Assembly (NCBI GenBank): GCA_964655365.1
Contig: CAZZMQ010000003.1
Span: 10,750 to 47,410 of the forward strand
Length of the DNA stretch: 36,661 bases
DNA from: an uncultured Dehalococcoidia bacterium
GTDB lineage: Bacteria > Chloroflexota > Dehalococcoidia > Bin125
Direction: 5' to 3'
Below the pieces are notes generated by a model, which saw only the letters and a program-made list of their open reading frames with translations, was not told the origin of the DNA and did no database searches. Positions 18,035-19,609 of the stretch are shown here, in pieces. The first letter of the stretch is position 1. The number at the start of each line of letters is the position of its first letter. The translations under genes were made by a program, and so were the position numbers.

Positions 18035-19609
18035 CTAGTGCTCGCCCTCACCATCAAACTCTTCCTCATGCTCGCCATGCGAGATTGCAGTCACCGCAAA
18101 GACGAGCGTGAGCATTGCAAAAACAAAGGCCTGAATGAAGCCCACGAACACTTCCAATCCGTAGAACACGGTCGTGATCGCGAACGGCACCAAAAAGGCC
18201 GACATAAATAAGACGATCTCCCCAGCAAAAATATTGCCGAAAAGTCGGAAGGTGAACGAAACGATACGAGAGATCTCCGAAATAATCTCCAAGAACCCCA
18301 CCACAACGCCAATCGGTCCCTTGACCACTGCTGCGCTGCCAACGCCGATGTATTTGCCGAAGTTGGCACGGGGGCCAAGCGATTGGATGCCCCACAACTG
18401 TACGAAGATGAAGGACCAGAGGGCGATCGCCAGTGGCAGGTTGAGGTCTGTCGCTATAGCGCGGAAGAAGGGAAAGATGTGGGCCACCCCCTCGTTCCCA
18501 TCGACGCCTTCATCGGTCATCTTGAGCACTAGCCCCAGGTGGGTGAGGTTGAGCGTGACAGGCTCTATCTGTTGTTCAGGGCCAGACGGGACGGGATTCT
18601 CATCGTCCACATCCCCCTTGGTATCGAAGACGCGGGCGGAGATCACAGCCCCATCGCTACCCAACGCGAGCACGAGCCGCTCCCGGTAGGGATCGAACTC
18701 AAAGTCATCCGCCTTGATCGGAATGATGTTGACGCCGCCACCGTTGACAACAGGGCCCTTCAACTCCGACTCAGTCACCTCACCCAGTGGGAGGGGCAGA
18801 TTGAAAACAATCGCTTTCTCCGTCGCTTCCGCAGCACCGTGAGCGTGGATTGCCTCAAGCTCTGCTTTCCCGAAGGGGTACGCCTCGACGATCATCTCAA
18901 GGCGCTCTTCGAGAGCCTTCAAGACATCTTTGCTGTCCGCCGGAATCGGATCCTCGGAAAAGAGTTCCCGCACCGCAACCTCGCGCGCTGTGAGCTCGCC
19001 GCCAAAAATGGTAGCGATCTGCTCGTCAGCATCGTCCAGATGCGCCACGTCGAATGGAATCGGATCGAAGTAGAGCTCACCGAACACTTCGTTGAGCTCG
19101 GCAACAGTGAGCTCGCCGCTCGCGTTCAAAACATTGAGGTCATGCAGGATGTCTTCGCTGTCTTCCTCGATAATCTCCAGATGTTCGAAGCGAAGATCGA
19201 CGGTGCGACCAACGACGTTGTTCCACGGGAAGAGGCCAAACCAGTTTCCGAATAGCAAGATTACGAAGATCCCCGCGACAACGGGGAAGAAGCGGCGACC
19301 ATTCTTTTCGCCAGCAACCAGGGAAACGACATTAAAGAATGCGTCCAGCAGCGCCTCGACGATGTTCTGCAGACCGCTGGGAACGACAGCCTCTTCTACA
19401 TTGCGCAGGCGACGGTACAGAAAAAAGACCATTCCACTCATCAGGATCAAGATGACCCAGAACGAGAGAATAGTGTTGGTGATTGTGTAGCCGCCCAAGT
19501 CGATAATCGGCTCAGCAGCTATGACGATCGGTGGAGTCGGGGCCTTAACGAGGATGAACCCCACGACGATCAGCACGAATGCGCCAAACAGGGCGATCTT
19601 CGTGTTCAT
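18035..19609 (-). CDS. atpB: Fo ATP synthase subunit a, carrying a roughly 250-aa acidic insertion
   Basis: Conserved [10 protein letters not shown] helix, ATDLNLPLA segment, the essential Arg motif [14 protein letters not shown], and C-terminal helices. I chose the ATG at 19609 (MNTKIALFG..., GGAG Shine-Dalgarno). The longer 19684 start would overlap the upstream small gene. Confidence 0.9.

Follow-up and report, generated by a model that had tools for sequence, protein, structure and literature searches.

A conserved, predicted extracytoplasmic domain inside the ATP synthase subunit a of a lineage of Dehalococcoidia

The atpB gene and the insert in its product

The window analyzed here is a stretch of 36,661 nucleotides (nt) from an uncultured Dehalococcoidia bacterium (contig CAZZMQ010000003.1 of assembly GCA_964655365.1, positions 10,750 to 47,410); all coordinates given below are those of the window. 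On its reverse strand lies atpB, 18035..19609(-), coding for the Fo subunit a of an F-type ATP synthase: 524 amino acids (aa) and a stop codon. With canonical subunits a having 271 aa in E. coli (chain 5t4o_K), 237 in Bacillus PS3 and ~250 in mycobacteria, the product is about twice the usual size, as the first-pass annotation, made from the sequence alone, had stated for a start at ATG 19609. The canonical chains have a short loop between the membrane helices aH3 and aH4, whereas the window protein has a domain of ~240 residues at this site. This insert, residues 131–378 (248 aa; 18476..19219(-)), is the subject of the analysis.

The open reading frame (ORF) of subunit a spans 18035..19684(-) and offers two candidate starts, ATG 19684 and ATG 19609. 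We favoured the latter because it is preceded by GGAG at 6–9 nt upstream, because a start at ATG 19684 would overlap the adjacent gene atpZ (19656..19886), and because the equivalent start is used by all full-length homologues.

The protein is a true Fo subunit a. It matches PF00119 (ATP-synt_A) with 130.6 bits (gathering cutoff 33.9), the match being split around the insert into an N-terminal part (residues ~6–146) and a C-terminal part (378–517). Because the insert splits the match, the scores fall short of the NCBIfam equivalog cutoffs (TIGR01131, 91.5 versus 102.6; NF004481, 119.6 versus 227), and the 524-aa form is outside the curated NCBIfam models of subunit a. The six-helix core, the essential Arg of aH5, the conserved aH5–aH6 hairpin and the position in the operon are all shared with canonical subunits a. 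We located GNWFGLFPW at residues 121–129, ATDLNLPLA at 386–394 and an 11-residue Arg block at 454–464; R455 (codon at nt 18245..18247), found within FTFRLFGN, is invariant among the homologues, and its block aligns to the Arg regions of the Chloroflexus aurantiacus chain 9itj_T and of the E. coli and mycobacterial chains. The canonical elements listed in the first-pass annotation, C-terminal helices included, are all present, and the placement of the insert between the GNWFGLFP helix (aH3) and the ATDLN segment (aH4) was found to be correct.

The best match of subunit a among PDB sequences is 9itj_T (312 aa; E 2.6e-43). The N-terminal membrane part with its hydrophobic peaks, aH1–aH3 (residues 1–130; 19220..19609(-)), aligns to residues 10–145 of this chain; N122, W123, F124, L126, P128, N130 and N131, in this part and at the junction, are invariant. 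The C-terminal membrane part, aH4–aH6 (residues 379–510; 18080..18475(-)), aligns to residues 180–309. In the full-length model the transmembrane part received only moderate values, 50–70, of the predicted local distance difference test (pLDDT). A Foldseek search with the membrane core model returned C. aurantiacus a chains (9it*) as the top 12 matches, with E down to 8e-7 and TMt ~0.6, followed by mycobacterial, E. coli and chloroplast subunits a. The last 14 residues (511–524; 18038..18079(-)) make an acidic, His-containing tail, already recognized as acidic in the first pass and predicted to be cytoplasmic; the homologues likewise end in His/Asp/Glu-rich tails, and the tail of the window protein is a longer form of the HDEE that ends the C. 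aurantiacus chain.

The insert holds 54 Asp/Glu, 16 Lys/Arg and 7 His, and no Cys; the acidic and basic residues had been counted by hand in the first pass as about 54 and about 16, and both figures are exact. Its net charge is −15.8 per 100 aa, with the 25 other ORFs of the window ranging from +1.4 to −9.4. As had been claimed, it has no hydrophobic stretch of transmembrane length: the top 19-residue Kyte–Doolittle mean is 0.96, compared with 1.8–2.4 in the transmembrane helices.

The earlier picture of a hyper-acidic loop was right with respect to acidity but needs refinement with respect to structure, as the insert is predicted to be a well-conserved folded domain, not a loose acidic linker. 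AlphaFold2, run on the insert alone with the family alignment, gave a predicted template modelling score (pTM) of 0.80 and pLDDT >90 over ~180 residues; in the full-length model pLDDT is 81–96 across residues ~141–370, with a dip to 68 at 291–300. The folded core of this putative ectodomain extends over residues ~135–375 (18485..19207(-)). The predicted secondary structure comprises a strand (133–138), eight helices within 139–270, a beta region (283–347), a helix (353–366) and a return strand (373–380). The helical subdomain (residues 139–270; 18800..19195(-)) contains the invariant residues I198, V213, R214, F217, R236 and N270, and its first helix bears R140 together with a stripe of H/E142, H/E145, E148, D/E153 and D/E157. 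The beta subdomain (283–347; 18569..18763(-)) has a conserved GGxxIIPxK motif as well as conserved D302, F303, D306 and E310. The remaining part, the last helix and the return strand (348–378; 18476..18568(-)), has the invariant N354, then H357, and H/E377 just before aH4. The structure prediction and fold search that the first-pass annotation had proposed thus yielded a confident predicted fold, one with no match in PDB or BFVD.

An internal duplication had been suggested as well. The two segments named there, of 23 residues (165–187; 19049..19117(-)) and 22 residues (204–225; 18935..19000(-)), align with a score of 45, while shuffled sequences score 19.8 ± 4.0 and none of 2000 shuffles reached 45. 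Family profiles of the two units share 16 aligned columns (P = 0.005; controls against other helices, P ≥ 0.09), and in the model each unit is a helix end, a DPIP turn and another helix. We conclude that the insert holds a short repeated helix–DPIP motif; duplication of a full domain is not proven.

The alignment blocks flanking the insert pair residue 146 with residue 145 of 9itj_T, and residue 378 with its residue 180. The aH3–aH4 linker of C. aurantiacus subunit a (Pro127–Pro187) lies on the periplasmic surface, is partly disordered and closed by a Cys135–Cys173 disulfide, and has a 'unique insertion', His142–Thr172, of 31 residues; the proton inlet half-channel begins at His170/Asp171 of the linker (PMC12002316). 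Two members of one phylum have insertions at the same periplasmic linker. In C. aurantiacus, however, the insertion is short, partly disordered and clamped by a disulfide, whereas the insert of the window has ~240 residues (~8-fold more), is folded by prediction and has no Cys; there is no sequence similarity between the two.

Since the insert aligns with this periplasmic linker, we place it on the outer (P) side of the cytoplasmic membrane. The same location is supported by the Lys/Arg clusters found in other loops of subunit a (residues 66–106 and 412–432), by Cys residues that come in even numbers in the insert (0, 2 or 4 in 100 of 101 homologues), a pattern that disulfides outside the cell would produce, and by the strong negative charge, which fits an exported segment. 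The first-pass annotation, arguing from E. coli, had also put the loop outside and near the entrance of the proton half-channel; a closer relative of solved structure leads to the same answer. Altogether, it is very probable that the domain is real, folded, a part of subunit a and exposed outside the cell. Some subclades (e.g. P0053 and P0092) have paired Cys inside the ectodomain (LCLIEC, ICLP...C; alignment columns ~250–262), which suggests disulfides.

Distribution, conservation and search for relatives

Subunits a with the insert are encoded, each in a single ORF, by 61 species-representative genomes, among which several are closed chromosomes. Each of the 61 carries the label of a Dehalococcoidia or Chloroflexota metagenome-assembled genome, with seawater and sponges as sources; >100 protein clusters (90% identity) of 500–600 aa have the insert. 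The genomes include 'TK10-74A' and 'bin125'; the latter gave its name to the GTDB order Bin125, to which Candidatus Umbricyclopia belongs (PMC10608941; PMC5649159). No loss of the domain was seen among the 61 species, its length and charge are conserved, and the gene order MFS transporter, BFN nuclease, atpZ, a, c, b, delta, alpha is the same in 60 of the 61 loci. The domain is a lineage-wide feature of one Dehalococcoidia lineage, established rather than recent. According to the first-pass annotation, an insert already documented as lineage-wide would be real but not novel; lineage-wide it is, but no published description was found in the literature searched.

In assemblies of sequencing runs from four independent marine metagenome studies we saw the whole gene with identical sequence, free of joints, indels and substitutions. 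The GC content of the insert, 0.56–0.57, is similar to that of the flanks, ~0.6. An assembly chimera and a split gene, both brought up in the first pass as ways in which the insert could prove spurious, are rejected by the four-study identity and by the 61 single-ORF loci. An intein or another self-removing insert is rejected as well: there was no Hint match among Pfam hits to the insert of 29 family members, and no structural match. A scan for promoters and terminators inside atpB gave nothing beyond chance.

The ectodomain is clearly under purifying selection, less stringent than that on the channel. In comparison with the closest relative (L001, dS ~0.75), the ratio of nonsynonymous to synonymous substitution rates, dN/dS, is 0.16 for the ectodomain versus 0.065 and 0.038 for the N- and C-terminal membrane parts; across loci, the ectodomain has 25–50% identity versus 67–90% for the transmembrane parts. 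Invariant or near-invariant positions of the insert (57–101 homologues compared) are R140, E148, N173, F176, P183, I184, I198, V213, R214, F217, P221, R236, N270, P272, G292, N354, H357 and G359; fully invariant among them are R140, I198, V213, R214, F217, R236, N270 and N354. In three proteins of 595–601 aa (P0037, P0047, P0049) we observed ~80 extra residues with repeats of EAAER/SEAA type inside the helical part of the ectodomain.

The acidity is a property of the family. Net charge of the ectodomain is from −21 to −44 (mean −32) in 101 homologues; 13 alignment positions have Asp or Glu in at least 80% of the family, and 12 of these are acidic in the window protein. Several titratable positions are kept in a restricted form among the same 101 homologues: His (65) or Glu (29) at position 142; His (70) or Glu (30) at position 145; Glu at 148 in 99; an acidic residue or His at 153 and 157 in at least 90%; His at 357 in 100; and His (68) or Glu (24), 92 sequences together, at position 377, just before the IFPFFR start of aH4. 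Positions 142, 145, 357 and 377 adjoin the aH3 and aH4 helices in sequence.

Searches for relatives of the domain outside subunit a gave little. A Pfam scan of the insert of the 29 family members produced chance matches only (E >0.002); a profile search of the insert against PDB sequences found nothing at E up to 10; Foldseek searches with the insert model had best matches with E ~1 (TM 0.15) against PDB and with E 0.44 against BFVD. An exhaustive hidden Markov model (HMM) search of 1.84 billion representative proteins gave 19 matches; those inspected were all subunits a, fragments or frameshifted copies, and the one left uninspected, a 2604-aa protein, matches over a short stretch of the helical region, which is prone to repeats. 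With this exception, the 1.84 billion proteins yielded no donor of the domain. Within the reach of these searches, the domain appears to be confined to subunit a of this clade, and it may represent a new fold. In the literature searched, the C. aurantiacus paper was the only one on an insertion at the aH3–aH4 site, and a description of the present domain was not found; database entries name the homologues simply 'F0F1 ATP synthase subunit A'. To judge from these searches, the ectodomain is undescribed; the subunit a carrying it is canonical.

Linkers of intermediate size, 100–126 residues, are present at the same insertion site in subunits a of other Dehalococcoidia (P0115–P0120, 376–406 aa). 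They resemble the insert of the window in having a GGxxxIPLK-like motif and His- and acid-rich starts (NVIGxTDNVYEHVEHE), but they are partly low-complexity and without the eight-helix bundle, and outside the flanks the similarity is non-significant. The ectodomain HMM gave only a non-significant match to them, at GGxxIPLK; comparison by hhalign with the C-terminal, beta half of the ectodomain gave P = 6e-5, a value inflated by the shared flank. These observations are suggestive only: the aH3–aH4 loop may be a hot spot that grew in steps within Chloroflexota, and the eight-helix bundle may have been added only in the present clade.

The ATP synthase operon and its surroundings

The operon is complete, in the order atpZ, a, c, b, delta, alpha, gamma, HAD hydrolase, beta, epsilon. 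Upstream of atpB is an atpZ/atpI-like gene for a small membrane protein (19656..19886(-); PF09527 ATPase_gene1, E 8.4e-13). Downstream are atpE for the 86-aa c subunit, with its carboxylate in AFAEAIGIY (17706..17966(-); PF00137), atpF for the 170-aa b subunit (17115..17627(-); PF00430), atpH for a full-length delta subunit of 181 aa (16560..17105(-); PF00213, 2–171 of 172 profile positions), atpA (15018..16547(-)), atpG (14075..14965(-)), a gene for a HAD-IA hydrolase of the beta-phosphoglucomutase family (13397..14071(-)), located between atpG and atpD, then atpD (11934..13346(-)) and atpC (11437..11883(-)).

The Na+ site of the c subunit of Ilyobacter tartaricus is made of a Gln in helix 1 (GVGQG) and of Glu-Ser-Thr and a Tyr in helix 2 (AESTGIY). 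The c subunit of the window has GVGIG and AEAIGIY, with the Gln and the Ser/Thr of the Na+ site missing. A Na+-coupled enzyme was rejected on this ground; with no Na+ motif in the c subunit, the coupling ion should be H+. The c subunit also has a 15-residue acidic N-terminal extension, which would sit outside, on the side where the ectodomain is placed; the two might make contact.

The delta subunit bears upon the overall architecture. The C. aurantiacus enzyme has two stalks, with two a-subunits clamping one c-ring, an arrangement tied to a shortened, 157-aa delta; in all Chloroflexi species compared, the N-domain of delta is ~20 residues shorter (PMC12002316). Unlike those, delta of the window is full length: it aligns end to end with delta of Paracoccus and Bacillus PS3, and only its C-terminal half (residues 71–176) aligns to the C. 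aurantiacus subunit. With delta full length, we set aside the two-stalk, two-a-subunit architecture, which is not predicted for this enzyme.

Upstream of the atpZ–atpB pair, genes for the MFS transporter and the BFN protein (20022..22105(-)) are found in 60 of 61 loci, an unusually rigid synteny for unrelated functions. Directly downstream of atpC are genes for MurA (equivalog match of 489 bits versus a cutoff of 392.7) and MreB (8879..11320(-)). Dehalococcoidales and SAR202 have been reported to be without dcw genes (PMC10608941); since MurA and MreB are present here, the lineage probably makes peptidoglycan. Elsewhere in the window, a 479-aa ORF (24634..26073(-)) has no Pfam match, and in an acidic ORF of 1102 aa (31422..34730(-)) only a C-terminal VWA domain was recognized.

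Possible roles of the domain

Bacterial F-type ATP synthases have, to our knowledge, next to nothing that protrudes on the P side. Lineage-specific soluble mass on the membrane stator is likewise present in mitochondria, in the form of supernumerary subunits on the P side (lumenal), and in V/A-ATPases, as the large soluble domain of their subunit a. The mitochondrial additions are, however, separate polypeptides, and in the V/A-type subunit the domain is found at the N-terminus, on the cytoplasmic side; both lie outside the aH3–aH4 loop and share no homology with the domain described here.

The reading that we regard as the most likely one, though with less than even confidence, is that of a proton-collecting funnel, an anionic cap outside the cytoplasmic membrane. 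In it the aH3–aH4 linker has been expanded, within the same polypeptide, into an anionic domain of ~240 residues, folded by prediction, at the outer face of the membrane. Two short strands (residues ~133–138 and 373–380) would connect this domain with aH3 and aH4 at their ends and so hold it directly over the P-side mouth of the inlet, a placement in space that we infer. The large negative surface would raise the local proton concentration at the mildly alkaline pH of seawater, and titratable residues at the base (H/E142, H/E145, E148, H357 and H/E377, around R140 and N354) would hand the protons to the half-channel. We consider such a role because the net charge is conserved at a level beyond that of other proteins of the window, and because the His/Glu positions are conserved beside aH3 and aH4; alternation of His and Glu at fixed positions by a proton pathway would be the look expected of a relay. 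An antenna collecting protons or cations and a docking module had both been put forward in the first pass, and both are still hypotheses; the conserved His/Glu positions agree with the antenna without proving it.

Proton-antenna or 'H+ capacitor' surfaces, clusters of carboxylates and His at channel entrances, are known in cytochrome c oxidase, bacteriorhodopsin and reaction centres. In alkaliphilic Bacillaceae, cytochrome c has acidic N-terminal segments that are proposed to raise the supply of protons (PMC12457358). The likeness consists in carboxylate and His clusters beside a proton entry, proposed where bulk H+ is scarce. The known antennae are, on the other hand, patches on existing surfaces or short tails with no homology to the domain, which would be a dedicated structure of 240 residues given an antenna role by inference.

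Several considerations weigh against the funnel. The proteins that marine bacteria secrete commonly have a high negative charge, and seawater, with ~50 mM Mg2+ and 0.5 M salt, largely screens charge, which weakens an electrostatic antenna. Ordinary bacteria manage at the same pH with no such domain. The closeness of the His/Glu positions to the channel mouth is judged from adjacency in sequence alone, and most of the invariant residues, being hydrophobic or Arg/Asn, would equally fit a binding or docking module. A search for RNA-seq runs holding the atpB gene found none.

A structural or docking role is to be weighed seriously: the domain could tether the stator to the wall or an envelope layer, make contact with the c-ring or the N-termini of the b subunits, or pair ATP synthases. 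Such a stabilizing role we take to be a possible explanation, almost as likely as the funnel. The predicted fold is compact and has invariant hydrophobic as well as Arg/Asn positions (R214, R236, N270 and N354 among them), as is typical of an interaction surface; with MurA and MreB in the lineage a wall to dock to is probably there; and the peripheral variation in size caused by the EAAER repeats (P0037, P0047) is of the kind seen in spacer-like modules. Contacts of the stator on the P side are made conceivable by the two a-subunits clamping the c-ring in C. aurantiacus (PMC12002316), although the full-length delta speaks against that architecture here. Yet no partner is known, no extra conserved gene accompanies the operon in the 61 loci, and no similarity to known wall-binding or oligomerization domains was found in Pfam, PDB sequences or by Foldseek; docking also leaves the conserved acidity and the His/Glu positions by the channel unexplained.

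Improbable, in our judgement, is a module binding divalent cations (Mg2+/Ca2+) or gating the channel and in this way regulating proton entry, for instance by shutting the inlet upon a change in proton-motive force or ionic conditions. Both ions are abundant in seawater, and ligands would be plentiful among the 54 carboxylates in 248 residues, with the 12 family-wide acidic positions of the window protein including a cluster in the beta part (D302, D306, E310). An EF-hand, a cadherin-like or another known metal-binding motif or fold was nevertheless not found by Pfam or Foldseek, regular DxDxD spacing was not seen, and conformational switching is without a supporting sign.

Quite improbable, too, is a tolerated passenger, i.e. 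a harmless expansion of a permissive loop with no function of its own. The linker does vary in length in Chloroflexota (~31 extra residues in C. aurantiacus, 100–126 in other Dehalococcoidia, ~240 here), and the ectodomain does evolve faster than the transmembrane parts; its dN/dS value, invariant residues and confident predicted fold, as well as the conservation of length and charge over 61 species with no loss, are difficult to reconcile with a neutral passenger. Finally, only the unusual length speaks for an artefact (a chimeric assembly, or two genes fused by a frameshift) or for an intein-like insert that is removed from the protein; either is exceedingly improbable given the identical, joint- and indel-free sequence in four studies, the uninterrupted ORF in 61 genomes with closed chromosomes included, the lack of an intein/Hint or any other Pfam domain, and the GC content similar to that of the flanks.

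In practice, curated models of subunit a score this form below their cut-offs. The domain marks an abundant uncultured lineage, marine and sponge-associated, and together with the unusual enzyme of C. aurantiacus it suggests repeated remodelling of the Fo stator in Chloroflexota. How protons get to the inlet half-channel remains a matter of debate, above all for alkaline pH or low proton-motive force; a domain built into the loop at the mouth of the inlet is a natural experiment on this question. It is conceivable, if doubtful, that the unseen fold is a dedicated extracytoplasmic module of a bacterial F-type ATP synthase, a proton-harvesting funnel or an envelope tether. If true, it would be an adaptation letting widespread uncultured Dehalococcoidia of the sea and of sponges make ATP where proton availability and energy flux are both low.

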